Both the position numbers and the translations under genes were made by a program. A stretch of 64,000 nucleotides of DNA. Origin: Elsinoe ampelina. Taxonomy: Eukaryota. Of the stretch, positions 19,845 through 48,527 are shown in pieces; the first letter of the stretch is position 1; each line of letters starts with the position of its first letter. The DNA lies in assembly GCA_010093995.1 (NCBI GenBank), contig ML992503.1:921234-985233 (forward strand). Reading direction: 5' to 3'. The notes under the pieces were generated by a model. That model searched no databases and had not been told where the DNA came from. It saw nothing but the letters and a program-made list of their open reading frames with translations.

Positions 19845-20012
19845 CCTTACGAACTCGTGCCGTCTGCGGGGTCTTGGTCGTTGAGGATGAGTAGGAGAGT
19901 TCGACCAGCGAAGCTTCTTTCTCGAGCGATAGTTTGTTCCTTTCTCCGTGACACTCCGCTGCAGAATGAACGACTCAGGGGACTGAGTTGCAGTGCTTAA
20001 ATGCTCCGCTTA

Positions 20013-20167
20013 CAGGGCTTTTCAGTTCAAACGAGCCACCCCAGGGCTTGGCGTGATCGTTTTAGACGTTGCATCACCAAATTTGGCTGGCCAGATGTCC
20101 AGATAGATTGTAGTCGTAATTGTCGTCAAAATTGCTTAATTTTTGAAGCTAAAAAAAGGTGTAATAG
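20013..20167 (+). repeat. Left terminal inverted repeat (multi-block)
   Basis: 20011-20054 matches the reverse complement of 48486-48529 at 43/44. Further matching blocks lie at ~20078-20106 and 20146-20166. Confidence 0.9.
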
Positions 20168-20168
20168 T

Positions 20169-21171
20169 ATAGTGAACTATTGAATTACTCTAGCTAAACT
20201 AGCTAACGTTAAATTCCTTCTAGCTAAAGGCTATTTAGACCGTGCTATCTATAGCACTACTAAGGTTGCTCGCTCCACTATCCGGAGGATAAGGCTATTA
20301 ATTAAGTTCTTTAGTGTGCCTTATCTACCTAATAATATTAAGTACTACTTAAGGCTACTCTCTCTAGCTCTTAAAGATGTAAGCCTTACTCTTTCTAGCC
20401 TCCTCTACTATACTAATACTACTTAAGTAAGTTATTCTATACCTTAACAACATCCCTATAGCTTACCTTAATAAGGTAAGGGACTTCCTCTTTAAAATCT
20501 ATACTATACTAGTCTCTATTAGTACTATCTAGAGGACAATTAAGCGCTAGAGATAGTTAAGGAAGGTAGCTAAGAAGGTAGCTATAGAAAGAGATAAGGT
20601 ACTAAGGAGCAATTAAAGTATACACTATAAGAGCTAGCTAGTTAAGAGTATTATTTATATTAATAAGTTAGCTTATAATAAGTATACTATATAGAGGAGA
20701 TATAGATAGACACCTATTAGTGTTAACTATATAGATAGTTAGCTAAAGTAAAGGAGTAAGCGCTAGAGTATACTTCTAGCAATTACTATAAACAGATACC
20801 TTAATAGAGTACTTATCTACTATAGCTCTATTATAGGAGATATCTTTATCTAGTAGCTAAGGGAGTTAGTACTACTATAGCTACTAGCTAGCACAATCCT
20901 AGTTATAGATAATGCCTTAATATATCGCTATAATAAGGTAAAAGAGCTTATAATTAAACACGGAAGTTACCTTAAGTACCTACTACTATATTTACTAGAT
21001 TTTAACTCTATCGAGTAGTTATTCTTAGTGCTTAAAGCGTAGGTAAAGAGGTACTACTATTTAGCTATAGAATTTAACAAATACTAGGACTTCTTAATAT
21101 TAGTAGTTTAGTTATACTATAGAAAGAACACTAGGAACTATTTTAAGAGCTATAGATATAGTATAAGATAA
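20169..21171 (+). pseudogene. RIP-degraded Tc1-like DD34E transposase
   Basis: De-RIPed motifs YIDES (~20656), VMDNA (D at 20908) and LPPYSPDFNPIE (E at 21013). D-to-E spacing is 34 residues. Probable intron ~20379-20427. Confidence 0.85.
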
Positions 21172-21339
21172 ATAGACAAGTATAAAGAGATAGGAGCCTT
21201 ATAAGGTTAAACTTAGCTTTAATATCTACTAGTACTAAGAGGTTAAAAATTCTATACTATAGCCTTAGTCCTTCTACTACCTTATTTTACACCTCTTTTT
21301 AGAAGGCTATCTAGTCTACTAAGTAGTATAATATTACTA

Positions 21340-21800
21340 TTAAAGGCGCTAGCGCTTAAAGGAGCTTATCTTACTAATTATCTATACTAAGAGGCCTTTA
21401 TTAAAGTACTACTCCTCTCTCTAATAAGAAGAATTAATGCCTCTAAGGCTATTAATATTATAATCCTTGCTCTTTAATCTAAACTCTATATTGTCGAGTA
21501 TAGCCTTCTACCTTTTAAAGGCTCTCTTTCTTTTTAGCTAGTTAAAGAATTTAGCTAAAACTTCTACTAGATTAGTATTAGAACTAATAGGTAAGGATCG
21601 CTTAAAGTTAGTAATTATACTACTTAAAGAAGGTAAGGATTAGAGAAGTACGTAGCGTAGTAGTTCTAAGTATATATTAGTAATATTAATAGTGTTAACT
21701 AGTACTAGTAAAGCTAAATAGAACAGTAGTAGAGTTAGTAGTATAGGATAAGGTAAGTTAATAGAGGCCTCTAAAGTAGCTCTTCTTAGAGGTCTAGTTC
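21340..21800 (-). pseudogene. 3' part of the Tc1-element accessory ORF2
   Basis: Continues in frame from 46944 once Gypsy A and one TSD copy are removed. Reads ...RSSPI...LA.FF.W...DYDIDGLRGI...; probable stop at 21340-21342. Confidence 0.6.
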
Positions 21801-21805
21801 TATTA

Positions 21806-22003
21806 TATAACAAAGGTAGAATATTAGAGCTAGAAAGACAAGTATATAGAAGTAAGACAGGTATTATACTAGTATACCCTCGATTGTTATAAGACTAATC
21901 TCTACTCTATCTATTCTATAGGCGAGAAGTGTTTTATTCTTCTATAGAGAATAGTATCTCTAGAGTAAGCTAGCGTAGTATAATCGCTATGTTAGTCCTT
22001 ATA
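21806..22003 (-). repeat. 3' LTR of Gypsy A
   Basis: Direct repeat of 46746-46943, differing by transitions. Confidence 0.92.
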
Positions 22004-22660
22004 ATTATTCTTCCTCTTTAAGGAGTATACCCTCGCGCCTATAAGCCTCGATAAAACCTAGAAAACCTAGTATAGGAGAAAACTAGAAAAGAGTATCTCG
22101 CTAGCGCCTCTTAGATATAGTATACTCTTCGCGTATATAGCGCGCCTATAGTAGCCTATACTATTCTTTATATACTAGATATAGTAACAATAGTATAATT
22201 CTTTATATATAGAATATAGCGCTCTTATATTATTATCTTTATATATAAGAATCTACCTATTATTATATACTACTACCTATTATTCTCTGGATTAGTCTTA
22301 GCTTAGAGCTAGATATATATCTTTCTCTTTTTCTTCTCTTCTTCTTTTCTCCTTTATAACACTTCCTTTGCGTAAGTATCTTACTTAATACTAGCTCTAT
22401 ACTTACGTAGGTCTAATACTATACTAGTAATCTATTTTAGATGCTATATAGTATAGACTAGACCTTACTAGCCTAAGGGCTAGTAGGGGAGGCTTAGCGT
22501 ATATACTAAGCCTACGCTACTATAGATCTAGCTATTAGGCTTATCTATTTAGTTATTCGTTTACTAACCTAGCGTAGTACCTACGTAGTAAATTTTTTTC
22601 TCTTTGTTATTCCGGCCCTATACTAGCTTACCTCCTATACACTTACGCACTTTAATAACT

Positions 22661-25600
22661 ATAGTCCCTAAAATTCCTAAGGAGTAAGTATTGTATATAG
22701 CACTTACGCTACACCGGCGCTAACCTTTTATAGACCTTATAAGAGCGATTTTACTAACTAGAACTAGTACCTTATACTATGCTTATACTACGCTATTACT
22801 ATCGATAAGCACCTCTAGCTCGAAGATAGTATACTCTCTATCGAGGATCCCCTCTACTAGATTACTAAGGCTAAGGCTACCTACTATAATTGTTATAGTT
22901 ATAGTAATAAACACTACTACTAGGTATACTCTACGCCTATACTACGTCTACTTTATACTAACCTTAGTAGCCTACTAAGCTCGACTCTAAGAATTAAGCT
23001 ACTACTAAGAGGCTCTAGATAATGCGAGATAGATACGAACTAGATTCAGTTAGGATCTAGTTTAGATTAGTCACGTAATCTCGGCATCGTAGCCTAGGCT
23101 TCTAGCCGCTCTACCCTCGATATTACGTGTACTTTATATACTAGCTTTTCTTCTTCTTCTTCTAAGTCTCGATATCTTAACGAATAGACGTAATTCTCTT
23201 GTCTTACTAATTGTAATTACTATATCGAGACTTCGAAGAAGCTATAACTAAGCAATAGAGCTATTAAACTATCTAGTTATTCTACTACTTACGTAACTAC
23301 TAATAACTACTACTTACGAAGAATTAAAGAATTAAAGAAGGAGCTATTACGACTATAGTTCCCGCGTACACTATAATAGATCCTCGCTGCCGCTATGTAG
23401 GTTAATACTACAAACTCTAAAGATATAAGAAGAAGGTAATAAGTCGAGTTATAGACGACTCTTAAAGGAAGTAGGCTACCAGCTAAAAATTTTAATATTC
23501 CCTTTATTACGCGTTAACTTTTTATACTATTCTATTTACAACTAACTATGCTAAGTATAGCTTAATCTAACTATAGCAACGAAGAGCGCTACTAAAGTAA
23601 GCTACCTTAACCTATCCCTAACAATAATAACGCCCCTATCTACTCTCTCTACTATAATCTTTTTGCCCTCTCTAACGCTATACTCCTTAAGAAGCTATAG
23701 GAAGAGTATAGTATATAGGCACTAAGAGACGTATTTAACTATATTAAGTTCTTCTACGATAAGTAAACTATATAGGTAAAAGGCGCTTATACTAACGCTC
23801 TCTACTATTACTACGAGTTAGATACTACTTAGGCCTAGCTTAGTAACCTCTAATCCGAACTAGACGTATCTTAGTCCTATACTAACAGCGTTACTACCTA
23901 AGCTACTTGCTACCTAGACAAAATCTAAGAGCTTAAGGCTAAGGTAGACTAACTAAGAAACGAGATAGAGCGTAGTATACTAGCCCTTTCTACACGTAGC
24001 CCTACCTTGTTAGAAAAGATACTAGACTCTACTATCTTTAGTATAGGTACACCGGAGTAGTTCGAGGTCTTTAAGCACTAGATAAGGAATAAGATACGCG
24101 CTAATATAGATCGTTTCTCTACGAGGGACACCTAGTTTGCCTATCTATACTTACGCCTCTCTAGAGAAGCCTATACCCTTATTATAGACTTAGCTAGTAA
24201 CGACGTTATTAGCGTCGAAGAGGTCCTTACTCTCCTAGCCTAGCGCTTCGAGGATCCTAACTATAGGGCTACTATATGCACTTAGTTCGCTAACCTCTTC
24301 TAGCGTAATAGTATATTTAACTCCTTTATTAGCAAGTTTAATAAGTACGCCCTTTGCGCTAAGATCGCTAAAGAGGAGTAGCTATACTAGATCTATTAGA
24401 AGATATCTAACGAGCTACGCGATGCTCTAGTTAACTACGACACTAATAACCTTGCCGCCTTTATTACTAAGGCCTACGCTACCAACTATAACATCTAATA
24501 GAATAACCTTATTACTAAGCGCACTTAGGCTTTACGTTCTATGCTAGCTATAAGCTACGCTACTACTATACCTACTTACGTACCTTATTCTACCTCCGCG
24601 CCTATAGCTCTACTTACCTTTCGCCTTATTGCCGAAGGTACTCTATAGCCTTTCTATCTAGCTCTAGCACTTACCTATTACGTATACGGTAAGCCTAGAC
24701 ATATCTCTACTAAGTGTATAGCTAGCGCCTTAGAGAAGGCTACTTACGCTACTATACGCCTCGTACGTATTAGCGCTATAGAGGAGATATAGTAGCTCTA
24801 GAATCGCTTAGCTAAGTTAAGTAACTAGGTCGATACTAGTTCGGCTTACGAACTAGATCTAGTTAAGCCTTAGTTTAACCCCGAAATAGACTACGAGCCT
24901 ACTAGTTTCTCTAGCTAGAGAAATAAGTAGCTAGAGGACAAGTCCTATCCTCTAGCGGAATAAGGGTAATTCGAGATAGATCCGGAGGTATATAGTTACT
25001 AAATAGTGTTATTAGCTACTACATCCCCGCTATTATAACTCCTATTACTATTTACGACCCCTATAACTACTCGCGCACTATTACACTTTAAGCCTTTATT
25101 AACACTAGTGCGCTTATTAGCGCCGTAGTTAATTATAACATTCTTAATAAGCTAAAGAGCTTCGGCTACCCCGTAGTACTAGCTAGTTCTATTTAGCTTT
25201 AAGCCTATAATAGTGTTCTAATAGAGTAAGTTACATATAGTGTTTCCCTTACTACTACCGTTTCTAGCAAGCTAAATAACCTTACTACCTTTCGCATTAT
25301 AGATATTAGCCGATTTAATATTATTCTTAGCCTTAGCTAGCTTAAGGCTAATAGGGCTACTATCGACTATAAGTATAGCCGAGTTATATACAAAGAAGAG
25401 TTTTCGCTAACAGTTATTAAGTAGGAGCTACTATAGCTAATTAAAAGGCTAGAATCTAGATCTAAGCCCGGCTTAGATCTAGGAACCTAGCTTAGTAAAG
25501 CTGCCGTTTTAGTTTAGAATTAGTTCGGTCCTAGTTTAACACGTAAACTAGGTCCTAGCTTAGCTACTAAGATAGAGCGAACTAGACTATATTAACTACT

Positions 25601-28600
25601 AGCTCTTAGGTCGAACTTTAAGCTAAATTAGAGAGAGTTTAAGCTAATCTCCTATAGCACTTAGTTAATGTATAAGTTCTCTTACGTACTTGCCTACGTA
25701 AGTAACACTAAGCGAGAAGAGCTAACTATTACTTTTATCGGCGCTACTGCCTTTATATTAGTAGTTAAATACTAAGAGAATAAGGTATTTACAATCTCGG
25801 TAAAGAATATTAAAGACTACTACTAAATAGTCTCCGAGCTAGAACTAGATTCTATAGTAGTCCTCCTAGAGGAGTTATAGGAGTTTACTAATGTCTTCTC
25901 TAAAGAATAATCTAATACGCTCCCTTAGTATCGGCTAGATTTTAACAACTATATTATACTTAAAGATAGTACTAAGCTACTATATATAGAGCCTTTATAC
26001 TACCTATCGCTAGAAGAACTCGATATAGTAGAATAATTCATCTAAGAACATCTTAATAAAGGCTTTATTATACTAAGTTCCGCTAGCTATTCCTTACCTA
26101 TTCTCTTTGTTTATAAGCTAGGTAGAGGACTCCGTCTCTACGTTAACTACTGTAGCCTTAACGAGGTAACTAAGCGAGATATCTATCCTCTACTCCTTAT
26201 CGAAGAAACGCTTATACGCGTAAGTAAGGCTAAATAGTTTAGTAAGATTAACATCTATTAAGCCTTTTACCGCCTCTATAACTCTATTAATAGTAAAGAT
26301 CTTACTATGTTCTCTATATATATAGGTAACTTTAAGTAGCTAGTAATACCGTTCGGCCTTACTAATGCCTCTATAGTCTAGTAGAGGTTTATAAATTACA
26401 ACTTCGTCGATATGCTAGAGCGCTTCGTATCGATCTACCTAGACAATATTCTTATCTATACGAATAGCTCCTACTAAGAGCACGCTGAGCATATTAAGCT
26501 AGTACTCTAGAGACTCTACGAATTAGGCCTAAACGCTAATATTAAGAAGAGTAAGTTCTACCTAACAGAGGTAAAGTATCTTAGTATTATTATTGGCCGA
26601 GATAGAGTTAAAATAGATCTAAAGAAGATAGAAGCTATACGAGTCTAGAAATAGCTAGCTTCTAGTAACACTACTTAGGTAAGAAGCTTTATTAGTTTCT
26701 ATAGCTACTATCGCCGCTTTATTAAGGGATTTAGCACTATTACTAAGCTGCTAAATAATCTCCTTAAGAAGGACACTATACTATAGAACGATAAGTGTAC
26801 TACTATATTTAACTATATAAAGTACACTATTATAAGTGTGCCTATCCTTACGTATTTTAATTACTCGAAGTAGATAGTCCTTAAGACTAACACCTCCGAC
26901 ACTACTACCGCTAGAATTCTATTATAATATAACAAGTCTAACGTTCTCTAGCCTATTGCCTTTTTTAGTAAATCTATAAATAAAGCTAAACGTAACTACG
27001 CTATCTACGACAAGGAACTACTAGTAATTGTCTAAGCCTTCGAGGAATAGGCCCCTAAGCTTATAAGTACTTAATCTAATAAGGCTATCTACGTCCTTAC
27101 TAACTACTAATCCTTAATGCACTTTATAAAGACTTAGAAGCTATTACGCTGCTAAGTACGCTAGGCCCTCTACCTCGCGTAGTTTAACTTTAAGATTATA
27201 TATAGGCCTAGCGCTACTAACAGCAAGGCTAACGCACTTACGAGAAGGAATAGAAACGTGCTATATTCGAGAGAAGACTCTAATCTACGCTAGACGCTAC
27301 TACTATATAAGGTGCTAGATTAGTGTATTATCGACAAACTAAATCTAGGTCGCATCCGAACTAGATTACTAATCTAGGCCGAACTAAGATCTAGTTTAGT
27401 ATCTAGTTTGCGGACTAGTTTACTATTTAGTTCGCTACTAATTTCGCCTCCTATTTCGCCACCTGTATTAGCGCCTATTTCGGCCGCCGAACTAGGCATC
27501 TACGTAGTACCTATCTTAGCTACGGAAGAACCTTTACCCCTTTTCGAAGAAGTAGCTAAAGCTAACTTACGAGACGCTAAGTGCAAAACAGTTAGAGGCA
27601 TCTACTATATAATAGAGGCCTTCCTAAAGAGGAAATAGCTACTGTCGAGCGATGTTACTATTAATAAAGGAGTGTTATAAGTCGCCGGCTAACTATTCGT
27701 ACTATAGTTAATAGCCGCAAAGGTTATCTAAGAAGTCTATATATCGAAGGACTATATATATAGAGGAGCCACTAAAATAGCTACTATAATTAAGACTACC
27801 TTTTATATCCCGAGCTATAACAACTTTATTAAGAGGTTCGTAGCTAACTATTATAACTATAAGCGCTTAAAGGCTCGCTATAGCTTACTAGCTAGCCTTC
27901 TATTGCTATTGCCTATTCCGGTGAGACCTTAGTAACATATTACTATAGACTTCGTTACTAGCCTACCCCTAGTAAATAGCTATAACGTAGTACTATATAT
28001 TGTCGATCGCTTGTCTAAGGAGCGACACTTAATCTCTTACCTCTAGGGAGAAGAAGAAACCTCTATATTCGAGACAGCTAAGCTATTATTCTTCTACGTG
28101 TAGAAACTATATAGCCTACTAGATAGTATTACCTTTAACTACGGCCCTTAGTTCGTTAGCGACATATAGAAGAGGCTCTACTAGATCCTAAAGATTATAG
28201 CTAAGCTATCTACTGCCGGCTACCCTTAAATAGATAGCTAATTAGAAGTTATAAACTGAGAGTTCGAACGAGTTATTTAATCCTATATAATATAGTTTAG
28301 TAATTAAACTCTTGTTCTACTAGTTATAGAGTTCTCTATAAACGCTAACCCCTCGGAAAGTACTAAGCTATTACTATTTAAGGTAACTAGAGGATATAAG
28401 CTAAGAATAAGCTTCTAGCTCTCTACCGACTTACTATTAATAAGAGCTAAGCTTAATAAGGCCGAAATTCGCGCGCTTACTAAATAACTAGAAGAAGCCC
28501 TTACTATTACTAAAGCTAACCTTACTATTACTTAGTTACGAATAGTAGAGTAAGCTAACAAACACTGCTAGCTAATAGAGTTCGAAGCTAGCGATTTAGT

Positions 28601-29792
28601 GTAGTTATTAACGAAAAACCTTCGGCTATAGAGCAATCCGAAGCTACTACTAAAGTATGTTAGTTCTTATAAGATCCTCGAAAAACAGTTACTATTAGTA
28701 TATAAGCTCGATCTACTAGCTGCTCTATAAAGGATTTACCTCGTGTTCTACGCTAACCTCCTTACTAAGCACCTAAATAACCCTCTACTAGGCTAAGCCT
28801 TTAAGGAACCGCCTCTAGTAGAGATCGACAGTAAGGAAGAGTATAAGGTAGACGACGTAATTAATATATATATACTATAAGAGAAGCTAGTTACTTATGT
28901 AAGCTAGAAGAGCTATCTAGAGAATCTTACCTAGTGGCTAATTAATAACCTTAAAGGAGTAGCCGACATGCTACGTAACTATCTAGACTCTTATATAGAT
29001 AAGCTAAGGCCGAAATAGATTAATAAATAATATACAATAGTATTTAAGGGTAAACGCGCTTAAGAGAGAGAGTAGTAATACGAGATAGATACGAACTAGA
29101 TTTAGTTAGGATCTAGTTTAGATTAGTTATATAATCTTAGTATTATAGCCCGGGCTTCTAGCCGCTCTACTCTCGATATTACGTATGCTTTATATACTAG
29201 CTTTTCTTCTTCTTCTTCTAAGTCTCGATATCTTAACAAATAGACGTAATTCTCTTGTCTTACTAGTTGTAATTACTAGAACGAATACTTCGCTACGTAT
29301 ATACTACTCTATAATAACGCTACTACTCCTAAGAAGAACATTATTCTCCTAAAGCGCTAGATTACTACCTATACTAACTATATATACGAGAAGGCTAGTG
29401 CTAAACGTACGTAGAGTAAGTCTAACACTAAGAGTAAGAGTAAGGTAGTTAATAAGAGTAATAGTAATAGTATAACTTCTTTACGCTATAATAGTACTAT
29501 CGCTATACTCTTCGCCTCTAAAGTCGATACTAAGTAGCTAGCGAAGGCGCTATACCTAGGTATAATTAGTAATACTAGCTTTATGCTTAAGGCTTTAGCT
29601 AGTTATATAAGTCTAGAAGTGCGCCTCTATAACGCCTAAGCTACGCTAACTTTCTTATAGATAGTTACTAAGAATAAGTAAGCCGCTACTATATAGGTAA
29701 TTAATAACGCTACGAGGGCGCTAACTAGGCATATTAATAGTGTTAAGGAGAATAATAAGGATAAGACTAAGGTAAATAATATAGATAGTTAA
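22661..29792 (+). pseudogene. Antisense, two-intron Cys-rich gene carried by Gypsy A (~259 codons), interrupted by B1
   Basis: Exons 22661-22683, 22734-22923, 22968-23019 and 29281-29792. Introns GTAAGT..GCTAAC..TAG and GTATAC..TACTAAC..TAG. The frame is conserved across both introns and the B1 insertion. Confidence 0.65.
23020..29275 (+). mobile_element. Gypsy/Ty3 chromovirus-type LTR retrotransposon B, copy 1 (6256 bp, RIP-inactivated)
   Basis: 200-bp LTRs (23020-23219, 29076-29275), TSD CTAGA, PPT ~29062-29075. De-RIPed CX2CX4HX4C ~24677, IDTGA ~25097, YLDDILIY ~26437, ETDASD ~26883, MDFVTGLP ~27945, chromodomain ~28836-28950. Confidence 0.95.
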
Positions 29793-32700
29793 GGTAGAGA
29801 GAGCTAGGGCGCTACGCCTATACTATGCCCTCTTTACTTTAGTATAATTCTATAGTTTTTACTACGCCGGCATTCTCTCTATATAAGCTAATAATACTCC
29901 GAGCTAACTTAGCGCTATGCCTAGGTACTCTTTACTTCAAAATTTGTACCTTTAACTTATTAATCCTAAGTATATCTAGAGTGTTTAGCTAGCGCTATAC
30001 TTATACTAAGCTACCTCGTATTTATATAGTAATTCCTTAGCGTTTATAAGGTTTTTTACTAGCTTCTATATACTTTCTTCTATAGGGTAACTCTACTACT
30101 TTACTAGGTAGTATAGCGCCTTTAGAGTGCTAGTATAGCTCTTATCGAGGATACGTTTAATAATGTATTCTTTCTACCCTTCTACCTCTAGAGGTAGTAG
30201 GCGTATACTCTTACTATACCTATATAGCTCTAGTAGCGCAATGTTAAAGACGTTATAGATTAGCTTTATTTTGTCTAGTAAGTGTAGCTTATATGCCTAT
30301 ATACTAATTCGTTATATAATTATAAATAGGCTAATATACTTAGCTAATAGCTTATAGCTAGGTCTAGCGCTACGAAGGTTCTTAGTGCTAAGTATAACCT
30401 TATTACTATTATAGAAGACTTTTGCTTATCGACCTCTATTATAGGCTAGCGCTTAGTCTTTCTATGCTTTACGTAGGTGTTAGGCAAGCTCTATACGCGT
30501 TTTAGTAATAAATTACACTTAGTTATTAACTAATAAGTTATACGCTAGTATATAGCTAGGTAGCGCTAGCGCCTTAATATTATTAGGTAGATATATCTCC
30601 TACGTAAATAAGAACTATACTAGCGTAGCGTATAGTAATACTTAATATGTATTATTATACACGAATTGCGCCTACTTAACCTAGTACGGCTAGTTCGTCT
30701 AGTAATAGTTAATAAAGTAGTATAGATACTACTCTAGCGTCTAGTTTTGCCTTTTAGTTTAGCTGTCTATCTATAGATAGAAACTAGTGCTAAGCTTATA
30801 TTACGCCTTCTAGCGCTAGTATAGCGTACTCTAGAATTTACTTATAAAGATAGACTCTCTATCTAAGACTAGTGTCTTTAGCGTTCCGAACAACGTTATA
30901 ATATCTATTTTAAATAGATTAGTAAAGTCTCTAGCGTTAAGCTTAGTCGACGTTAGCGTATAGATACTAAACTTAGACAAGTAATAGATATACACGATAA
31001 TTGTATCTATAATAACGCTAGGCTAGAGCTCTACTAGGGGTAAGCTAGTAATAAAATTAAGCGACTAGTATTATAAGGCCTCGAGTATAGGCAGGATTAG
31101 TAAGAGTTATAGGAGGCTATAAGGCTTATACTATATTACCTTATACCTTTAGTAGCTATCGTAGCGCTCGATATACACTTTCGTAGCAATAGATATACCT
31201 AGCTACTAGTACTTTCTCCTTATATTAAGGTAGGTCTTAGTATAGCTAAAGTAACCCCCTAAGAGGTTATTATAATTGTACTATATAAGCTCTACTCTTA
31301 AGGTAGTTTCTTCTAGGATATATACTCTATCTCTATTCTAGAGTAAGCTATTACTAGATAGGCTCTACTTAGGGGTAGTACTATTACTAGTTAAGGTTCT
31401 CTCTTTTAGAAGTTTCTATTTCTTACTATAAGTAAAGGTGTCTCTTTACTATACTACGTAGATAAGGTCCTAGAGCGACGTAGAAGTAGAAGAGGTATAC
31501 GTAGTCTTATCTACTAGTACTTACGTAGCATAGAGGCGCGTAATCTACTAACTCTAGTCTAAAATTATAGCGGGCTTTCTACTAGAGGTGTCTTAGAGTT
31601 ACGTAGGTATTATACTATCTTTATACCCTTAGCTCTCTATTATTTCCTAGGCGAGTAGTAGTACGTTCTAGAATACTAAAGTAGGTATATATTGTTCTAA
31701 TTCGATATTACTAGTTAGGCTTAGAGAAAGGTTTACGTAAGTGCTCTCTAGGCGCTACTCTTCTTACTCTAGAGGCTTTAACTCTTCTTAGTATAGCTAT
31801 AGCACTCCTAAGGTAATAGGTAGACTTATAGGCGCTATTCTAGAGGTATACTAGAATTATATAAGTGCGTTACGTTAGGGAGTAGTTTAAGGTATATAAG
31901 CTATACTAGCTTTATTACTATCTTTCTAGGCCCTACTAGCCTTAGGTTCCTTATCTATAATAGATATAGGTATAACTTCTTTACTTCGCATTTATAACGC
32001 TTACTCTAAGAGGAGGACTAATATATAGTACTCTTCTTATATATCTTCTTTATGCTTATAGTAGTTAGGCCTATATAATAGACTATTAGCTAGGTTAGTC
32101 TTTCTACTATAGTACTAGATAACAATATCGAACTACGCTAGTACCTCGGCGTAGTAGACCTAGCGCTACGAAAGCTTCTTAGTAGTTAAGAAATACCTAA
32201 GGTTATTATAGTTAGAGAGAACTTTAATTAGGGTAGTAGCGCTAAGTAGGTACTAGCGCTAGTGCTATGCTACTTCTATAATAGCGAGAAGCTCTTTATT
32301 GTAGGTAGTATAGTTTAGTTCTATACCTTATAGCTTCTAGGACTAGAACGCTATAGAGTGCTAGTGTTATATAGGAGTATCGTCTTTGTTTTACTAGGAG
32401 ATTACTCCGGAGAGTATAAAATCTAAAGCGTTAGTCTCGAGCTAGAGAGGCTTACCTAATAAAAAGTAGTATAGTATAGACGCTTACGTAAAGGTAGCTT
32501 TAAGCTTATTAAAGGCCTACGCTACGTTATTACTCTATAGAAATAGGCCTACTTACTTCTCTTAGACTAACTCTTATATAAGTATAGTTAGTAGTAGTAC
32601 TATATAAGAGAAGCTCTTAATAAATTAATAGTAGAAATTAGTAAATCCGAGAAAGGTTTATAACTTCTTAAAGCTAGTAGAAGTAGGCTAGTTAGTAACG

Positions 32701-33063
32701 GCTTATACCCGGGGCTACTCTATTACGACGCTATTGCTACTAATAATATAGCTTAGAAATACTACCTATATTACCTCGAAGATATACTTCTTTAGTTTTA
32801 TATAGAGGCTATTCTTACGTAGGTAGTCTAGTACGCTCCTAATAGCCTAGCGATACTCTTACTCGTCGCTAGCGTAGATTAGAATATCGTTTAGATATAT
32901 AATATAGTAGTAGTCTACTAAGCTACTTAAGTACTAATATATATAAGTCTAGAACGTAGCTAGAGTATTAGTAAGGCTAAAAGGTATAACGGTATATTTA
33001 AAGTAGCTATAGTAATAGCGGAACACTATCTTCTATTTATTACTACGCTAGATACGTACCTAG

Positions 33064-36000
33064 TAATACGAGATAGATACGAACTAGATTTAGTTAGGAT
33101 CTAGTTTAGATTAGTTACGTAATCTTAGCATCGTAGCCCGGGCTTCCGGCCGCTTCGCCCTCGATATTACGTATGCTTTATATACTAGCTTTTCTTCTTC
33201 TTCTTCTAAGTCTTAATATCTTAACGAATAGACGTAATTCTCTTATCTTGCTAGTCGTAATTACTATATTAAGACTTAGAAGAAGCTATAACTAAGCGAC
33301 GGAGCTATTAAACTATCTAGTTATCCTACTACTTATATAACTACTAATAACTACTACTTACGAAGAATTAAAGAATTAAAGAAGAAGCTATTATAACTAT
33401 AGTTCCCGCGTATACTATAATAGATCCTTACTACCGCTATATAGGTTAATACCGCAAACCTCGAAGATATAAGAAAAAGATAATAAGTTAAGTTATAGAC
33501 GACTCTTAAAGGAAGTAGGCTACCGGCTAAAAATTTTAATATTCTCTTTATTACGCGTTAACTTTTTACACTATTCTATTTACGACTAACTACGCTAAGC
33601 ATAGCTCGATCTAACTACGGCGACGAAGAGCACTACTAAAGTAAGCTACCTTAACCTATCCCTAACAATAATAACGCTCCTATCTACTTCCCCTACTATA
33701 ATCTTTTTGCCCTCTTCGACGCTATACTCCTTAAGAAGCTACAGGAAGAGTATAGTATATAGGCACTAAGAGACGTATTTAACTATATCGAGTTCTCCTA
33801 TAATAAGTAAACTACGTAGGTAAAAGGCACTTATACTAACGCTCTCTACTATTACTACGAGTTAGATACTACTTAGGCCTAGCTCGGTAACCTCTAATTC
33901 GAACTAGACATATCTTAGTTCTATACTAATAGCGTTACTGCCTAAGCTACTCGCTACCTAGACAAAATCTAAAAGCTTAAGGCTAAAGTAGACCGACTAA
34001 GAAACGAGATAGAGCGTAGTATACTAGCCCTTTCTATACGCGGCTCTACCTTATTAGAAAAGATACTAGACCTTACTATCTTTAGTATAGGTACACCGGA
34101 GCAGTTTAAGGTCTTTAAGCACTAGATAAGGAATAAGATATATACTAACGTAGATTGTTTCTCTACGAGGGACACCTAGTTTACCTATCTATACTTACGC
34201 CTCTCTAGAGAAGCCTATACCCTTATTATAGACTTAGCTAGTAACAACGTTATTAGCGTCGAAGAGGTCCTTACTCTTCTAGCCTAGCGCTTCGAGGATC
34301 CTAACTATAGAGCTACTATACGTACTTAGTTTACTAACCTCTTCTAGTATAATAGTACGTTTGACTCCTTTATTAGTAAGTTTAATAAGTACGCTCTTTG
34401 CGCTAAGATCGCCGAAGAGGAGTAGCTATACTAGATCCGTTAGAAGATATCTAATAAGCTATACAATACTCTAGTTAACTACGACACTAACAACCTTACT
34501 ACCTTTATTACTAAGGCCTACACTACCGACTATAACATCTAATAGAATAACCTTATTACTAAGTGCACTTAGGCTTTACGTTCTATACTAGCTATAAGCT
34601 ACGCCGCTACTATACCTACTTATGTATCTTATTTTACCTCCGCGCCTATAGCTCTACTTACCTTTCGCCCTATTACTAGAGGTGCTCTATAGCCTTTCCG
34701 TTCGGCTCTAGCACTTACCTATTACACATGCGGTAAGCCTAGACATATCTCTACTAAGTATATAGCTAGCGCCTTAGAGAAGGCTACTTACGCCGCTATA
34801 TGCCCTATACGTATTAGCGCTATAGAGGAGATATAGTAGCTCTAGAATTGCTTAGCTAAGTTAAGTAACTAGGTCGATACTAGTTCGACTTACAAACTAG
34901 ATCTAGTTAAGCCTTAGTTCAACTCCGAAATAGACTACGAGCCTACTAGTTTCTCTAGCTAGAGAAATAAGTAGCTAGAGAACAAGTCCTATTCTCTAGC
35001 GGAATAAGAGTAATTCGAGATAGATCCGGAGATATATAGTTACTAAATAGTATTATTAGCTACTATATCCCCGCTATTATAACTCCTATTACTATTTACG
35101 ACCCCTATAACTACTTGCGTACTATTATACTTTAAGCCTTTATTAATACTAGCGTACTTATTAGCGCCGTAGTTAATTACAACGTTCTTAATAAGCTAAA
35201 GAGCTTCGGCTACCCTGTAGCACTAGCTAGTTCTATTTAGCTTTAAGCCTATAATAGTATTCTAATAGAGTAAGTTATATATAGCGTTCCCCTTACTACT
35301 ACTGTTTCTAGTAAGCTAAATAACCTTACTACCTTTCGTATTATAGATATTAGCCAATTCGACATTATCCTTAGCCTCGGCTAGCTTAAGGCTAATAGGG
35401 CTACTATTAACTACGAGCATAGCTAAGTTATATATAAAGAAGAGTTTTCGCCGATAGTCGTTAAGTAGGAGCTACCGTAGCTAATTAAAAGGCTAGAATC
35501 TAGATCTAAGCCTAGCTTAGATCTAGGAACCTAGCTCGGCAAAGCTGCCGTTTTAGTTTAGAATTAGTTCGGTCCTAGTTTAACACGTAAACTAGGTTCT
35601 AGCTCGGCTACCGAGATAGAGTAAACTAAACTATATCGACTACTAGCTCTTAGGTCGAACTTTAAGCTAAATTAGAGAAAGTTTAAGCTAATCTCCTATA
35701 GTACTTAGTTAATATACAAGTCCTTCTACGTACCTGCCTACGTAAGTAACACTAAGTAAGAAGAGCTAACTATCGCTTTTATTAGCGCCGCTACCTTCGT
35801 ATTAGTAGCTAAATACTAAAAGAATAAGGTGTTTACAATCTTAGTAAAGAATATTAAAGACTACTACCGAATAGTCTCCGAGCTAGAACTAGATCCTATA
35901 GTAGTCCTCCTAGAGGAGTTATAGGAGTTTACCGACGTCTTCTCTAAAGAATAATCTAATACGCTCCCTTAGCATCGGCCGGATTTCGATAACTATATTA

Positions 36001-39000
36001 CACTTAAAGATAGCGCTAAGCTACTATGTATAGAGCCTTTACGCTACCTATCGCTAGAAGAACTTAATATAGTAGAATAATTTATCTAAGAATATCTTAA
36101 TAAAGGCTTTATTACACTAAGTTCCGCTAGCTATTCCTTACCTATTCTTTTTGTTTATAAGCTAGGTAGAGGACTCTATCTCTACGTTAACTACTATAGC
36201 CTTAACAAGGTAACTAAGTAAGACATCTATCCTCTACCTCTTATCGAAGAAACACTTACGCGCGTAAGTAAAGCTAAATAGTTTAGTAAGATTAACATCT
36301 ATTAAGCCTTCTACCGCCTCTATAACTCTGTCGATAGTAAAGATCTTACTATGTTCTCTATATATATAAGTAACTTTAAGTAGCTAGTAATACTATTCGG
36401 CCTTACTAATACCCCTATAGTCTAGTAGAGGCTTATAAATTACAACTTTGTCGATATACTAGAGCGCTTTATATTGATCTACCTAGATAATATTCTTATC
36501 TATATAAATAGCTCCTACCGAGAGCACGCCGAGCATATTAAGCTAGTACTCTAGAGGCTCTACGAATTAGGCCTAAACGCCGACATTAAGAAGAGTAAGT
36601 TCTACTTAACAGAGGTAAAGTATCTTAGTATTATTATTAGCTAAGATAGAGTTAAAATAGATCTAAAGAAGATAGAAGCTATATAAGCCTAGAAATAGCT
36701 AGCTCCTAGTAATACTACTTAGGTAAGAAGCTTTATTAGTTTCTATAGCTACTATCGCTACTTTATTAAGGGATTTAGTACTATCGCTAAGCTACTAAAT
36801 AATCTTCTTAAGAAGGACGCTACACTATAGAATAATAAGTATACTACTGTATTTAACTATATAAAGTACACTATTATAAGTGTACCTATCCTTACGTATT
36901 TCGATTGCTCGAAGTAGATAGTCCTTAAGACTAACACCTCCGACACTACTACCGCTAGAATCCTATTATAATACGACAAGTCTAACGTTCTCCGGCCTAT
37001 TACCTTTTTTAGTAAATCTATAAATAAAGCCGAACGTAACTACGCTATCTACGACAAGGAACTACTAGTAATTGTCTAAGCCTTCGAGGAATAGGCCTCT
37101 AAGCTTATAAGTACTTAATCTAATAAGGCTATTTATGTCCTTACTAACTACTAATCCTTAATGCACTTTATAAAGACTTAGAAGCTATTACGCTACTAAG
37201 TACGCTAGGCCCTCTACCTCGCGTAGTTTAACTTTAAGATTATATATAGGCCTAGCGCTACTAATAGTAAGGCTAACGTACTTACGAGGAGGAATAGAGA
37301 TATACTACGTTCGAGAGAAGACTCTAATCTACGCTAGACGCTACTACTATATAAGGTGCTAGATTAGCGCATTATCGACGAACTAAATCTAGGTCGCATC
37401 TAAACTAGATTACTAATCTAGGCTAAACTAAGATCTAGTTTAGCATCTAGTTCGCGGACTAGTTCGCTATCTAGTTCGCTACTAATTTCGCCTCCTATTT
37501 CGCTACCTATATCGGCGCCTAGTTCGGCTACTAAACTAGGCATCTACGTAGTACCTATCTTAGCTACGGAAGAACCTTTACCCCTTTTCGAAGAAGTAGC
37601 TAAAGCTAACTTACGAGACGCTAAGTGCAAAACAGTTAGAGGCATCTACTATATAATAGAGACCTTCCTAAAGAGGAAATAGCTACTATCGAGCGATGTT
37701 ACTATTAATAAAGGGGTGTTATAGGTCGCTAGCTAACTATTTATACTGTAGTTAATAGCCGTAAAGATTATCTAAGAAGTCTATATATCGAAGAACTATA
37801 TATATAGAGGAGCTACTAAAACGGCCGCTATAATTAAGACTACCTTTTATATCTCGAGCTATAATAACTTTGTTAAGAGGTTCGTAGCTAACTATTACAA
37901 CTATAAGCGCTTAAAGGCTCGCTACGGCTTACTAGCTAGCCTTCTATTACTATTGCCTATTCCGGTAAGACCTTAGCAATATATTACTATAGACTTCGTT
38001 ACTAGCCTACCTCTAGTAGATAGCTATAACGTAGTACTATATGTTGTCGATTACTTATCTAAGGAGCGACACTTAATCCCTTACCTCTAGGGAGAAAAAG
38101 GAACCTCTATATTCGAGATAGCTAAGCTATTATTCTTCTACGTGTAGAAACTACATAGCTTACTAGATAGTATTACCTCTAACTACGGCCCTTAGTTCGT
38201 TAGCGACGTATAGAAGAGGCTCTACTAGATCCTAAAGATTATAGCTAAGCTATCTACTACTAGCTACCCTTAAATAGACGGCTAATTAGAAGTTATAAAC
38301 CGAAAGTTCGAACGAGTTATTCGATTCTATATAATATAGTTTAGTAATTAGACCCTTATCCTACCGGTTATAAAGTTCTCTATAAACGCTAACCCCTTAG
38401 AAAGTACTAAGCTATTACTATTTAAGGTAACTAGAGGATATAAGCTAAGAATAAGCTTCTAGCCCCCTACTAACTTACTATTAACAAGAGCTAAGCTTAA
38501 TAAGGCCGAAATTCGCGCGCTTACTAAACAACTAGAAGAAGCCCTTACTATTACTAAAGCTAACCTTGCTATTACTTAGTTACGAATAGTAGAGTAAGCT
38601 AATAAACACCGCTAGCTAATAGAGTTTAAAGCTAGCGATTTAGTGTAGTTATCGACGAAAAACCTTCGGCTATAGAGCAATCTAAAGCTACTACCGAAGT
38701 ATATTAGTCCTTATAAGATCCTCGAAAAACAGTCGCTATTAGTGTACAAGCTTAATCTACTAGCTGCTCTATAAAGAATTTACTCTATATTCTACGCCGA
38801 CCTCCTTACTAAGTACCTAAATAACTCTCTACTAGGCTAAGCCTTTAAGGAACCGCCTCCGGTAGAGATCGATAGTAAGGAAGAGTATAAGGTAAACGAC
38901 GTAATTAATATACGTATACTATAAGGGAAGCTAGTTACTTATATAAGCTAGAAGAGCTATCCGGAGGATCTTACCTAGTAGCTAATTAACAACCTTAAAG

Positions 39001-39319
39001 AAGTAGCTAACGTACTACGCGACTATCTAGACTCTTATATAGATAAGCTAAGGCTAAAATAGATTAATAAATAATGTATAATAGCGTTTAAGAGTAAACG
39101 CGCTTAAGAGAGAAAGTAGTAATACGAGATAGATACGAACTAGATTTAGTTAGGATCTAGTTTAGATTAGTTACGTAATTTTAGTATCGCAGCCTAGGCT
39201 TCTAGCTACTTCGCCCTTAATATTACGTGTGCTTTATATACTAGCTTTTCTTCTTCTTCTTCTAAGTCTTAATATCTTAACGAATAGACGTAATTCTCTT
39301 ATCTTACTAGTCGTAATTA
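33064..39319 (+). mobile_element. Gypsy/Ty3 LTR retrotransposon B, copy 2 (6256 bp), inserted in the RT of Gypsy A
   Basis: Colinear with B1 at offset 10044. LTRs 33064-33263 and 39120-39319; TSD CCTAG. Confidence 0.95.
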
Positions 39320-39926: not shown

Positions 39927-42900
39927 TGTTAAGAATATAGCTCTCTCTAGATAATTAGGCCCGAAGGTTATATAACTACAGGTTATATAATGCTAAGTCC
40001 TAGGGATTTATAGCTGTTCTTTCTTTCGGTAGATAGACTCCTTAATCAATTAACTCGTCTATTACCTAACTAGTAGGCGGATTAGTTCTATATAATACTC
40101 TACCCCTAAACGTGCCTTCCGCTTAATAGGTTATAAGCCCGGAGCTTATAGTACAAGTATAGGATTATATATACAGTAGTTAGCCTACTACTTAAACAAA
40201 ACGGAAGCGGAATTATAATATCCCTACCGCCTTATAGTTAACTATCTAGATACCTTTAGTAAGCCTAGTAGACTATACTATAAGTCGTGAAAGATTATAC
40301 TACTTAGAATAACAAGTAGGAATAGCACTTCTATTTAGTATAGGTTTAACTCCTATAATTGTTCCACTATAGCTACTGTTTATTAGCTAGATTAACTAAA
40401 CATATTCGATTTACTAACTTCCTCTAAGGCCTAGCTAGCCTTATAGACAACTATTAACTAAAGGTTATTAACTAAACTCGACCTTTATCTATTTATTCGA
40501 TTCTCTTCTCCTTAGAGAACTTAATTCCTAACTATAGAAGATTAGTTCTTATCTTTAAGAAGACTAGTTATTAAGCTTAATAGACTTAACTAGAGAGAAT
40601 AGTTCTACTAGATAGAAATATACCTTATAAGTAAGGATGCCTTCTAGACTATTCGTAGTTAGACTACCCCTTTAGTAACACTATTATCCGATAATACCTC
40701 TAGCTCCTTTTTAGTCCTACCTATTAAGTTAAAGGACTAGTAAAAGGCTAATGTAACTACTAAGTACTAGGTTGTCTAGTATATCTTATAAAATAACAAA
40801 GAGTTACTATATAAGGAAGAGCTTATATTAGAGTATTAGAGATTACTTAAGTCTAAGTATAAAACAAACCTTAAGGCAAGCGTAAGGGAGCTAGTTATCT
40901 AATTTGTAAACTATAAGATAGGTAAGTAGAACACTATTAATAAAGCTTAGTCCTACCTTACTAGCCTAGGAAGATAGATTGCTATTGTCTACCTAGATAA
41001 GGGTTATTAGAGGGCAGTAGAGAGATTATAGTAGCTTCTCTCTTCTCTTTCTAACGACTATAGGTTTACAAGGTAAGCAATTAAAGCAAGGGGATTAACT
41101 AATATAGATAAGGTCCTTCTTATTCTTAAGGAGAAAGAGAGACGCCTTAGTAAGCATAAGATTACTATGTTTACTAGGGGGAGACCAAATTAAGGACCTA
41201 GTAGGAGTATAAGCTATATATATATCCTCTACTTATAGGCTAGTTACACCGTAACTAGATGCCCTTAACTTTAAAGAGTATAGAGGCATATTTAGCCTTC
41301 CTATAGAATTACTAAGAGCCTACTAAGGAGGAGAAGATCTCTATTAGCTTCTAATAATCTAATTACCCTTGTTAGGCATCTTACTAAGAAGGTTAATAGA
41401 CTAGAAGCAGTATCTAAGTTAAAGAAAGGCAAAGCCTTTACTACTACTAAAGGCTAATCCGAACCTTCCTCTCTAATCTTAACTCTACTACCTAAAGTTC
41501 TGTTAGGTGAAGAGGAACTTAAGACTATAGGCTCTACATTAGAGGTGTAAGGTAAGCTTCTACATCATTAGTAGATGCTTAACTCTAGAGTATCTAACTA
41601 TATAATAGACAAGCTAACTCTCTTTAGAGGCCTATTAAGTAAGATATACACTTGATAGATCTAGGTTAGGGGGAGTTACCTTTAGTTATAGTTAATAGGA
41701 ACTATAGTTATTAGGACTAAGAAGGGAGATAAGATAAAGATATAGGCTCTTTATATACCTAATCTTAGTGTTAATTTAGTCTTCTATCGTAAGCTATATA
41801 TAGATTTAGAAGTTTCTAGAGTTCTTAATTTAAATTCTTTTCTTGTTCTTAATTTATAAAAGTAGCTACTACTTAAAGCTAGAATTTAAGGGGGGATATA
41901 CATTATCTAATCCCTCTTTAAGTAGTTAGCTAATCAAAAGCCGTATTCTAGATCTAAGCCTAGCTTAATTCTAGATCTAGCTAATTAGGACATAGTATTC
42001 CTTACTACTTAGCTAGTAATTATATTACACACTAAGTATACATATCTAACCTAGGATAAGCAACATAAGGATCTTATTAATTTAAGACCTAACAACTCTA
42101 ATATAGAGTACTAACTCTAGTATAGGAGATTTGCTTACCTTAGAGTTAAGAAGCTTAGGGATCTTTATAAGGTTATAACCCTTAAGAAGCCTATTAATTT
42201 AAACTATAATTTGTTAATCCTATATAAGGTCTATTCCTTAATAAAGATAAGAAATAGAAGAGGCAAAACTTTATAGAGAAGACTAGAGGTTCTTTAGCTT
42301 ATCTATACTAACATCTATAGCCTAATTAAAGTAAGTAGGGAAGGGTTTAGATACTTCCTTAAGCTTATAGATAGCTATTTAAGGATAATATAGATTATAC
42401 CACTTAAGACAAGAGATAAAGCTCTATAAAGGCTTATTAAGTAGAAGCTAAGAGTTAAGAAGGAGAGTAATACGAAGGTTAAGGTTACTAGATTAGACAA
42501 TACTAGTAAGCTTAATAAGATCCTAAAGTAGTAGGAGCGCTAAGAAGACATCTATTACACAACTACTAAGCTATATAATTTAATCTAGAATAGACTAGTA
42601 GAGAAAGACATCTAAACCTTAGAGAATAGTATAAGAGTAATGCTTAAGGACTTAAAGGTACTAAATAAGTTCTAGCCTAAAGTAGTTTAGGTAGATACAT
42701 ATCTAAGGAACAGGACAGCAACTAGACCTATAATTAATAATAAGTAAGTTACACTAATTAAGGCCTATATAGGCATTAAGCTATTAGTTAATCATATTAG
42801 AGTCTAGGGCTATAAGATATACACCTATATAAACCTAAAGTCCCTTCCTATATATAGAAGAAAAGATAAGCTTATAGATAGAAGGAGAGTAGAAGTATTC

Positions 42901-46745: not shown

Positions 46746-46943
46746 TATAACGAAGATAGAATATTAGAGCTAGAAAGATAAGTATATAGGAGTAGAATAG
46801 GTATTATACTAGTATACCCTCGATTGTTATAAGACTAATCTCTACTCTATCTATTCTATAGGCGAGAAGTGTTTTATTCTTCTACGGAGAATAGTATCTC
46901 TAGAGTAAGCTAGCGTAGTATAATTACTACGTTAGTCCTTATA
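46746..46943 (-). repeat. 5' LTR of Gypsy A
   Basis: Direct repeat of 21806-22003, followed by TSD TATTA (46944-46948). Confidence 0.92.
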
Positions 46944-48336
46944 TATTAAAAGCAATTATAAGTACTAGAGGAGGCTAATTAATACTATAGCTATTGCTCC
47001 TTACTATAGCGCTCTATTAAAGCCTTATAGCCTTATCTAGCTTATAGTACTTGCTCTTAATAGTCCTCTAGTATACATTACTAAAATTTATATAAGTCCG
47101 ATCCTTACACTTCTAACGCTATACTAAATCCGGCTCTTAATTACTATTTACTACCGCTAGTACACTATATAGTTAGCTAGTTACTAAGGCACGGCCTTAA
47201 GAAGGCGTAGTAGCGTCTTAAAAAGACTATAAAGAGAAGGAGAAAGAGTGTAGCTAAGCTACTACTAGTAAGAGGTTAGAAAAGGCTTATAGTATAGAAG
47301 GTAGTACTATCGGTACTAGCCGAGAGATTAGTACTATTAAAAGAGGCCGTAGCTAAGAGGCTTAAGTAGAGAATAGTACTAGAGTTACTCTCTTTATTAC
47401 TATACTTAGGCTAGCCTTTAATAGTAGTTACTTTTCTTAAGCCTACGTTTCTAGCTTAGTAGTTAAGCTATTAAAGTTAGCTAACTATACTATAGTAAAG
47501 GCTATATAGTTGTCTCTTTTTAGGCTACTATATCGAGTAACTACGTTAACCTTAAGAAGAATAATATTATACTCTAAGCTAGTTAACTCCTTCTTTACTA
47601 CCTAATTCGATATAGAAGACTATAATATCTTAGCTAGCTAGCTAAAGGTATACTTATCTTAAGCTACCTTCTTTAATCTAAGCCTTACTATTAATTTTAT
47701 ATCTACTAAGTAACTAGTAAAGAAGTTATCTAAGTAATTCTCTTATATCTCTAGTAGAAGTAATAACTAAGGTAGTTATATAGAGGCTACTATAGCCTCT
47801 ATAGTAGCCTTCTCCTTCTCCTTCTTCTTCTCTTAAGTAGCTACTCTCTAGATAAACTACCTTCTTCTCTCTACTAGTATCTTCTCTACTAACTCTAGCT
47901 CCTTATCCGACCCCTTCTCTTCTACTACTACCGCCGCTCTCCTCTAGATAGAAGGCCTCCTTAGCGGCAGTTACTTAATTAAAGGCCTTAGCTAGTTAGT
48001 AGTAGAAGACGTAGTAGTAGCTTTAGCTATAATACACTTAAGAAGAGCTTAGTCTATATTTAGTAGGTTTAGATAGGAGAGCGCTAGTATTTAGCTAGCT
48101 CGTAGGAAGAGCCTTAGTAGCTTCTACTAGTTTAGATCGATCTCTCTAAGAGAGCTAGAAGAGTAGTAAGAAGACTATAATACTACTAGTAATAAGGCTA
48201 GTAAAGAGAACTCTACTACTACCTCTTTCTCTTATAAAGTAGTAACTACCTCTTTAGCCTTATAAGTAGCTCTTAAAGGCCTCTTATTATAAGCTGGCTG
48301 GCGGCGAGGGGGGGTGGCAGGGTGCTTTTTAGCTAT
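46944..48336 (-). pseudogene. 5' part of the Tc1-element accessory ORF2 (unknown protein with a Cys/His motif)
   Basis: Single frame from a RIPed ATG at 48336 (MAKKHPATPPRRQP...). De-RIPed W-K-C-x4-C-x-N-x4-C-W-x6-H-Y-K-L...W..A...PP at ~47115-46970. Confidence 0.6.
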
Positions 48337-48364: not shown

Positions 48365-48527
48365 TTATTATACCTTTTTTTAGCTTTACTTTTAATTAAT
48401 AACAATGACAATTCATGGAATCACAACTATACACTATCTGGACCTCTGGCCACCAAAATTTGCAGCTGAGAAGTCGGTGAAGCGTACGCCAAGACCTGGG
48501 GTGGCTCGTTTGAACTGAAAAGCCCTG
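48365..48527 (-). repeat. Right terminal inverted repeat (multi-block)
   Basis: Reverse-complement match to 20013-20167 in three blocks; ends CCCTG followed by TA. Confidence 0.9.

Follow-up and report, generated by a model that had tools for sequence, protein, structure and literature searches.

A candidate antisense accessory gene, now a relic, ahead of the 3′ long terminal repeat of a Gypsy element of Elsinoe ampelina

Antisense genes of retrotransposons and the Elsinoe locus

Antisense accessory genes of long terminal repeat (LTR) retrotransposons are, to our knowledge, known from a few plant lineages and one fungal family, none of them with a known function. The locus described here lies in a window of 64,000 nucleotides (nt) of Elsinoe ampelina (assembly GCA_010093995.1, contig ML992503.1, positions 921,234 to 985,233 of the forward, or +, strand; all positions below are those of the window). 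In this window a Ty3/Gypsy chromovirus, element A (21806–46943, minus strand), holds between its pol gene and its 3′ LTR a reading opposite to gag-pol that is probably the relic of such a gene, killed by repeat-induced point mutation (RIP). The fungal precedent is brtn, which the excerpted text of PMC8365987 describes as an additional antisense open reading frame (ORF) of Boty/BcGypsy1 that is missing from the current B05.10 annotation; the report of brtn dates from 2011 and is cited in the excerpts of PMC8365987, PMC7264820, and PMC4227169. The initial annotation of the window had named brtn in Boty as a precedent, and the excerpts of PMC8365987 and PMC7264820 confirm this. The precedent is real, and the idea of an antisense gene is therefore not new in kind. 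As excerpted there, Boty is like element A a chromodomain Ty3/Gypsy element; its additional gene, opposite to gag-pol, sits between pol and 3′ LTR and encodes a protein that belongs to no known family. Unlike Boty, the copy in the window is RIP-degraded, and its likeness to brtn is one of description and not of sequence comparison.

A review of plant antisense ORFs in the interval between pol and the 3′ LTR cites Boty as the example from outside plants and gives their function as unknown (PMC7264820, in part). The plant genes, termed aORF-3R, include those of Grande, RIRE2, PvRetro13, and Retand (excerpts of PMC7264820 and PMC11963269); the antisense ORFs of Retand encode TRP28 and are thought to be DNA-binding, and a paper that PMC11963269 cites states in its title that Grande aORF-3R has its own promoter (both from the excerpted text of PMC11963269). 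A nuclear or DNA-binding regulatory role has been proposed for the plant genes, as is done here, their function being unknown. They differ in belonging, as far as these excerpts go, mostly to non-chromovirus lineages and in occupying much longer regions (2.9–6.6 kb in Retand), and whereas the Retand ORFs have a TRP28 domain, Pfam reported none in the exon 2 or exon 3b read-throughs of the window. A further parallel is offered by human T-cell leukemia virus (HTLV)-type antisense genes, which the excerpts of PMC10186651 and PMC11963269 describe as driven from the 3′ LTR. Like the reading in the window, they are minus-strand protein genes located at a retroelement's 3′ end, and a regulatory role has been either proposed or shown; however, HTLV is a vertebrate retrovirus with an unrelated protein, and expression from the LTR has been shown there, while the ORF of the window is known from sequence alone.

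The antisense reading occupies 22661–29792 (+), once a nested element, B1, is excised, and lies between the end of the pol chromodomain at ~30009 and the 3′ LTR at 21806–22003. We consider it probable that it was once an antisense accessory ORF, since killed by RIP, of the pol–3′ LTR class to which aORF-3R, brtn, and the genes of Grande and Retand belong. On this account, chromovirus-type Gypsy elements of family A would carry a pol–3′ LTR region of ~1.7 kb encoding an antisense accessory protein of ~260 residues. The ancestral layout would have comprised a short exon 1, a 50-nt intron, a Cys/His-rich exon 2, a 44-nt intron, and a long, acidic-tailed exon 3, transcribed from a putative promoter within the 650 bp that separate 3′ LTR and ORF. 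Being antisense in the genomic RNA, the introns could have survived retrotransposition. RIP would then have changed the start to ATA and made 15 in-frame TAA or TAG stops, and B1 would later have inserted into the antisense gene. By analogy with the described systems, our guess is that the protein might have regulated the element, as a nuclear factor that was nucleic-acid-binding or chromatin-directed. The ORF would be a new and apparently unrelated case of a known kind of antisense accessory gene. A second, apparently unrelated, intron-bearing fungal case would show that fungal Gypsy elements gain or keep such genes repeatedly. The window gene is a relic, and its worth lies in pointing to a family, not in the copy itself.

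The interval that accommodates the reading had been put at ~2 kb; a long extra region is indeed present between chromodomain and 3′ LTR, but its size is 1,744 bp (22004–23019 plus 29281–30008). In the Gypsy elements of family B nested in A, by comparison, only ~110–210 bp separate the end of pol homology (28865 in B1, 38966 in B2) from the 3′ LTR (29076 and 39117, respectively).

Parts, coding signal and strand of the proposed reading

The landmarks that the initial annotation gave for the reading were all found in place, namely the ATA at 22661, both intron-like motifs, and the stop TAA at 29790–29792. The proposed continuity also stands: with B1 and one copy of its target site duplication (TSD) removed, the spliced reading is in frame across both introns and B1 for 777 nt, or 259 codons. 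The start codon, at the position given, reads ATA and is a possible RIPed ATG. Proposed exon 1 (22661–22683, +) begins with this codon and raises the codon score by 3 nats over its 8 codons. It is followed by proposed intron 1 (22684–22733, +; 50 nt, GTAAGT...GCTAAC...TAG), by proposed exon 2 (22734–22923, +), which is rich in Cys, His, and Tyr codons and has five TAG stops, and by proposed intron 2 (22924–22967, +; 44 nt, GTATAC...TACTAAC...TAG), across which the frame passes from +2 to +1. The first part of proposed exon 3 (22968–23019, +), with its codon score in frame +1, runs up to the B1 insertion site; B1 and the second copy of its TSD (23020–29280, +) split the ORF, and the second part (exon 3b, 29281–29792, +) adds 170 codons with eight TAA or TAG. 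Translated, exon 3b shows a Ser/Lys/Asn low-complexity run and a K/N-rich tail, which would have been acidic before RIP. Altogether the reading holds 16 stops, a number absent from the initial annotation, 15 of them internal and every one TAA or TAG. At 15 of 258 codons (5.8%) the density of internal stops compares with 76 of 935 (8.1%) in the pol frame of A and 97 of 1,703 (5.7%) in that of B, and all 15 are reachable by RIP from CAA, CAG, or TGG.

Periodicity was assessed by a chi-square test of base by codon phase in windows of 360 nt. The strongest 3-base periodicity of the whole element was found at 22886–29630 (chi-square 35–47), against a maximum of 24 in pol. Exon 3b gave a chi-square of 67 (p 1e-12), which fell to 38 (p 1e-6) with tandem arrays taken out, and exon 2 alone gave 28.5 (p 7e-5). 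A codon model was trained on the homology-defined RIPed pol frames of A and of both B elements (B1 and B2) against the other five frames. Its log-odds are positive only in frame +2 at 22738–22890, then only in frame +1 at ~22931–29786, and negative on both sides, and the change point of both the purine-any-pyrimidine (RNY) pattern and the codon score falls at 22890–22977. The maximal coding segments of the candidate, 22579–22890 and 29271–29786, score 15.2 and 31.1, to be compared with 20–40 for A pol and with 42 for A gag and 10–33 for the copia element C, the latter two outside the training set; the score density of the candidate, 0.18 per codon, is as high as that of B pol. With B1 excised, frame and codon score are the same on both sides of the insertion site. 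Upstream, the + strand region 22021–22660 has negative codon log-odds in all six frames at 22256–22526; it is presumed to be the place of the 5′ untranslated region and of a putative promoter of the antisense ORF, a promoter role that we only infer. Downstream, an unstranded spacer (29793–30008) separates the ORF from the end of pol; none of its six frames has more than a weak coding score, the values at 29777–29912 being negative or no higher than +2.5 per 60 codons. The former coding region that had been supposed in the extra pol–3′ LTR region is thus borne out, close to the coordinates first given, by periodicity and codon log-odds level with those of true pol and gag, and the coding-like signal there exceeds chance. 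As a method, a codon model taken from RIPed pol recovers former frames and strand in RIP-saturated DNA where homology fails.

RNY periodicity is strand-symmetric, and strand was therefore judged by the log-likelihood ratio (LLR) of codons against their reverse complement. In cross-validation, the full model gave a positive value to the true strand in seven of seven pol segments, and 95% of 150 windows of 170 codons were positive. Exon 3b has an LLR of +19.3, reached by 0.7% of 711 null windows, which are conservative because + strand copia genes are among them; without the tandem arrays it is +16.8. For exons 2 and 3 together (250 codons) the LLR is +27.2. In a segment scan each wrong-strand mirror segment of a real gene has a stronger partner on the true strand, whereas within 29271–29786 all in-register minus-strand segments stay below 9, the threshold for listing. 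The orientation opposite to gag-pol given in the initial annotation agrees with this LLR and with the + strand segment of 31.1 that has no minus partner of at least 9, and we conclude, from statistics on one RIPed copy, that the coding strand is the one opposite to gag-pol.

Proposed introns, cysteine codons, and competing explanations

For the strict intron motif GTAAGT...CTAAC...YAG, 57 kb of RIPed DNA, counted over both strands, hold two matches, of which intron 1 is one. Over intron 1 the +2 codon score is flat, rising 4 nt past the acceptor (from 22738), and frame +2 has no ATG or ATA at 22700–22773. Intron 2 lies within the interval in which the frame changes (22890–22977), its 44 nt provide the shift that is needed, and its scores are non-coding in both frames. 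The onset of the signal at the intron-1 acceptor and the change of frame at intron 2 agree with the two proposed introns; the motif of intron 2 is weak by itself. Judged from motifs and codon scores, we would give intron 2 roughly an even chance of being real, and intron 1 somewhat less than that. The other match to the strict motif is at 35742–35785 (+), in B2 and on its sense strand.

The 63 codons of exon 2 comprise two Cys, two His, and 11 TAY (TAC or TAT) codons. Cys, His, and Tyr together account for 15 of the 63 (24%), as against 11% in the RIPed pol of A (p 0.003), an excess that fits a Cys/His-rich origin. The Cys-rich cluster that had been read into exon 2 therefore stands as an enrichment, but two Cys codons are all that is left of it and its spacing is unlike Zn2Cys6: what is compatible with that pattern is only C-x2-C-x6-C at residues 51, 54, and 61, with a possible Cys at 41, and two positions needed before residue 41 have no Cys-capable codon. 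The initial annotation put the predicted protein forward as a zinc-binding regulator or anti-silencing factor, a hypothetical role.

Evidence from other copies comes from a DNA run of the same organism (X1), in which 2,793 contig pieces fell on 29281–33063 and covered 30 of 30 bins, including 29281–30042. Among the copies 319 of 320 variable places are transitions. The indels listed amount to a single contig with a 1-nt deletion paired with a 1-nt insertion. Contigs from runs X3, X4, and X6, which are presumably RNA, did not fall on 29281–33063. Among the 40 of the 320 places that are listed, six lie inside the ORF, with the other letter in 9–19 contigs each, and none is at a stop codon. Given the transitions and the full bin cover, the 3′ part of the extra region is thus multi-copy, in a family in which nearly all differences among copies are due to RIP, and the transitions with the one paired indel indicate that family A was nearly uniform before RIP. 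A loss of the region from other family-A copies, which would have spoken against a maintained gene, is not seen at 29281–30008, which is multi-copy in X1.

Homology searches with the ORF were uniformly blank. Exon 3b (170 residues, with stops as X) gave 22 candidates in a word-based search, none at an expectation value (E) of at most 0.01, and had no HMMER match in 1.84 billion representative proteins, a sub-threshold chance match only in Pfam, and a best E of 0.4 against PDB sequences; exon 2 and the frame-+2 read-through of 22498–23019 had no Pfam match, and the whole extra region compared by tblastx with 96 related elements gave a best E of 0.6. In a power control, the gag and protease of A (466 residues), read alike, gave no Pfam family. 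Since these two proteins of A itself also lack a Pfam match, little weight attaches to the blank results.

One alternative, which we hold unlikely, is that the founder of family A on a single occasion picked up, in reverse, part of a host gene or of some other element; this piece, coding in its former place, would have been carried passively since and would never have been a gene of the element. A donor gene could have bequeathed both the coding-like signal and the intron-like motifs, and transduction has been discussed as a source of plant elements' pol–3′ LTR regions (PMC11963269, in part). Yet neither a donor nor a homolog was found among the 1.84 billion representative proteins or in Pfam, a search of low power, and the signal, unlike a truncated fragment, follows an ordered exon path that begins at a plausible start and ends at a stop. 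The region is also kept in many copies, though passive carriage permits the same.

Several points weigh against a relic of an antisense accessory gene. The evidence is from a single heavily RIPed copy in which the intact ancestral ORF is a matter of inference, and the copy evidence covers 29281–30008, which is the 3′ part of the extra region, not the 5′ part with the introns. The candidate ORF has no homolog in any search (Pfam, PDB, the 1.84 billion representatives, and the related elements). Two short tandem arrays, of period 6 and period 12, lie in exon 3b, and the Ser/Lys/Asn and tail repeats add to the periodicity. The codon model was trained on pol only, a synonymous-only model is right in five of the seven training segments, and for copia element C, an independent case, the two strands are told apart by a small margin only (32.8 against 29.5). 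That the stops can be repaired is no test, since any TAA or TAG in RIPed DNA can be derived from CAA, CAG, or TGG. As for the exons and introns, exon 1 is too short for a test of coding signal, frame +2 is open through intron 1, which is thus unnecessary for an open frame, and motifs of the class of intron 2 occur at 0.46–0.70 per kb, or about once per 1.5–2 kb by chance. In exon 2 two Cys codons alone are intact, TAY codons are common in any RIPed frame, and the Zn2Cys6 pattern (C-x2-C-x6-C-x5-12-C-x2-C-x6-8-C) does not fit even with every TAY taken as Cys.

A second alternative is that there was no former gene, the reading being a chance path through a TA-rich RIPed spacer, aided by short triplet-period repeats and by stops excused as RIP. 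The 15 internal stops, the non-ATG start, the period-6 and period-12 arrays inside exon 3b, and the blank result of every homology search are all in keeping with this, as is the fact that wrong-strand segments of real genes score 23–29 in the same scan. We rate it as slightly less probable than capture, and hence also unlikely: the periodicity keeps its p of 1e-6 even without the arrays, the density of 0.18 per codon is at the level of B pol and, unlike all wrong-strand cases, has no stronger mirror segment, the frame is the same on both sides of the B1 insertion, and stretches that score as non-coding bound the signal. A protein on the gag-pol strand, whether a third, env-like ORF or a pol extended at its C-terminus, can draw on the strand symmetry of RNY periodicity and on an in-register minus frame with 11 stops in 170 codons (eight in the + frame) and long Leu/Ile/Val-rich stretches, but is very improbable, as the codon LLR prefers the + strand by 27 nats over 250 codons, the minus frame, with scores per 60 codons of −2 to +3 where the + frame has +4 to +15, has no segment of at least 9 in 29271–29786, and the hydrophobic minus reading is the reverse complement of Asp, Glu, Ser, and Lys codons.

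Basidiomycete relatives, element anatomy and setting

Relatives of element A with an intact gene in the same place were met among distant chromoviruses. The nearest pol proteins are from metagenome assemblies, 19 of 8,000 scored candidates having an E of at most 1e-5 (best 2e-94), and 96 related loci on metagenome and viral contigs are distant, with a pol identity of 31–38% to the RIPed pol. In four of the 96 the stretch from pol to the 3′ LTR holds an antisense gene that is intact, in each case on the minus strand of the contig: L054 (7212–8293), L042 (3819–4840), L063 (12140–13260), and L062 (6151–6708). This basidiomycete gene has two exons in different frames, separated by an intron of ~50 nt whose donor is GTGCGT or GTAAGC and whose branch site is CTGAC or CTAAC. 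In the encoded ORF a KE-rich N-terminus is followed by a cluster of six Cys, then by a long helix and an acidic tail; the cluster has Zn2Cys6-like spacing, with Pfam Zn_clus below cut-off (E 0.011–0.058), and a structure model has a mean predicted local distance difference test score (pLDDT) of 58, in which only helix 114–160 is confident. The ORF has 161 homologs and no Pfam family, and the homologs include hypothetical proteins of Scleroderma citrinum whose gene models cover both exons. A search of the literature on antisense and Zn2Cys6 accessory genes of retrotransposons found no description of this gene, and none of the papers listed there uses the term Zn2Cys6. Spliced antisense genes of the shape first inferred for the window thus exist in intact fungal chromoviruses, and these intact relatives, together with a second fungal case, would be material for testing what antisense genes do.

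The basidiomycete ORF is like that of the window in its antisense orientation, its position between pol and the 3′ LTR, a fungal-type intron of ~50 nt, and the succession of Cys cluster, helical part, and acidic tail. It differs in having its intron before the Cys cluster where intron 2 of the window comes after it, six Cys that fit a Zn2Cys6-like spacing which the Cys of the window ORF do not, and a distant pol, the identity to the RIPed pol being that given above. Direct comparison of the proteins, which had low power, found no sequence similarity: RIP-normalised Smith-Waterman scores of the window ORF against the basidiomycete ORFs were 40–46 with controls at 31–56, and a RIP-aware profile gave 19–28 in + frames with controls at 16–35. 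The top score of this profile, 40.6, was in a minus frame with 41 stops per 169 codons and was rejected as an artefact of the freedom given to stops. It would be a bold and, we think, unlikely generalization that spliced, antisense, Cys-rich, and acidic-tailed nuclear proteins form a recurrent module of fungal chromoviruses, acting as DNA-binding regulators of the element's own transcription or in anti-silencing, with the introns as a mark that the gene is readable from integrated DNA only. If true, such a module would rest on the RIPed ascomycete-type family, on Boty with brtn, and on the basidiomycete Zn2Cys6-like family.

The boundaries of the elements were taken from repeat search, self-BLAST, and direct reading of the ends. 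Gypsy A has LTRs of 198 bp and the TSD TATTA on both sides. The 3′ LTR (21806–22003, minus; TSD at 21801–21805) is 94% identical by self-BLAST to the 5′ LTR (46746–46943, minus; TSD at 46944–46948). A polypurine-tract-like run (22004–22020, minus), pyrimidine-rich on the + strand, adjoins the 3′ LTR and fits the minus-strand orientation of A. The 3′ part of A pol (30009–33063, minus), in a single minus-strand frame that ends at ~30009, comprises RNase H, integrase, SH3, and chromodomain, as found by Pfam on the read-through translation and by blastx to P0003, its best intact relative. In Pfam, RT_RNaseH (1e-16) and SH3_Tf2-1 (2e-9) were found, with RVT_1 and Integrase_H2C2 weak. The Chromo match at 30167–30015 is full length, below cut-off (15.5 bits, E 0.016), and aligns to the Chromo domain of P0003, at whose end the homology between the two pol proteins stops (30009). 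With reverse transcriptase, RNase H, integrase, C-terminal chromodomain, LTRs, and a 5-bp TSD, element A is a Ty3/Gypsy chromovirus.

Three elements are nested in A, all on the + strand. B1 (23020–29275) is a Gypsy element with an LTR pair, a TSD of CTAGA at 23015–23019 and 29276–29280, and pol at 25842–28865 on the + strand (blastx); B2 (33064–39319; TSD CCTAG), also Gypsy, is 91.5% identical to B1. This one copy of A was therefore hit by two independent family-B insertions, which have the same orientation and different TSDs. C (39927–45245; TSD CTAGT) is a Ty1/copia element with an RVT_2 match (E 2e-27), LTRs that are 97% identical, and a GC content of ~0.30.

All of these elements lie in an AT-rich block of 28.5 kb (20000–48500) flanked by GC-rich gene regions (GC content 0.50–0.62). 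RIP is indicated by a TpA/ApT index above 0.89 and a (CpA+TpG)/(ApC+GpT) index below 1.03. In the block these are 2.17 and 0.21, at a GC content of 0.35, and in its flanks 0.54–0.56 and 1.24–1.27, at 0.54–0.55. The block passes both thresholds, copies differ by transitions, and it is RIP-mutated repeat DNA. Within it, segments 20079–21771 and 47392–47959 are coding-like. The edges of the block, at 20011–20166 and 48366–48529, have in common an inverted stretch of ~160 bp with 75% identity.

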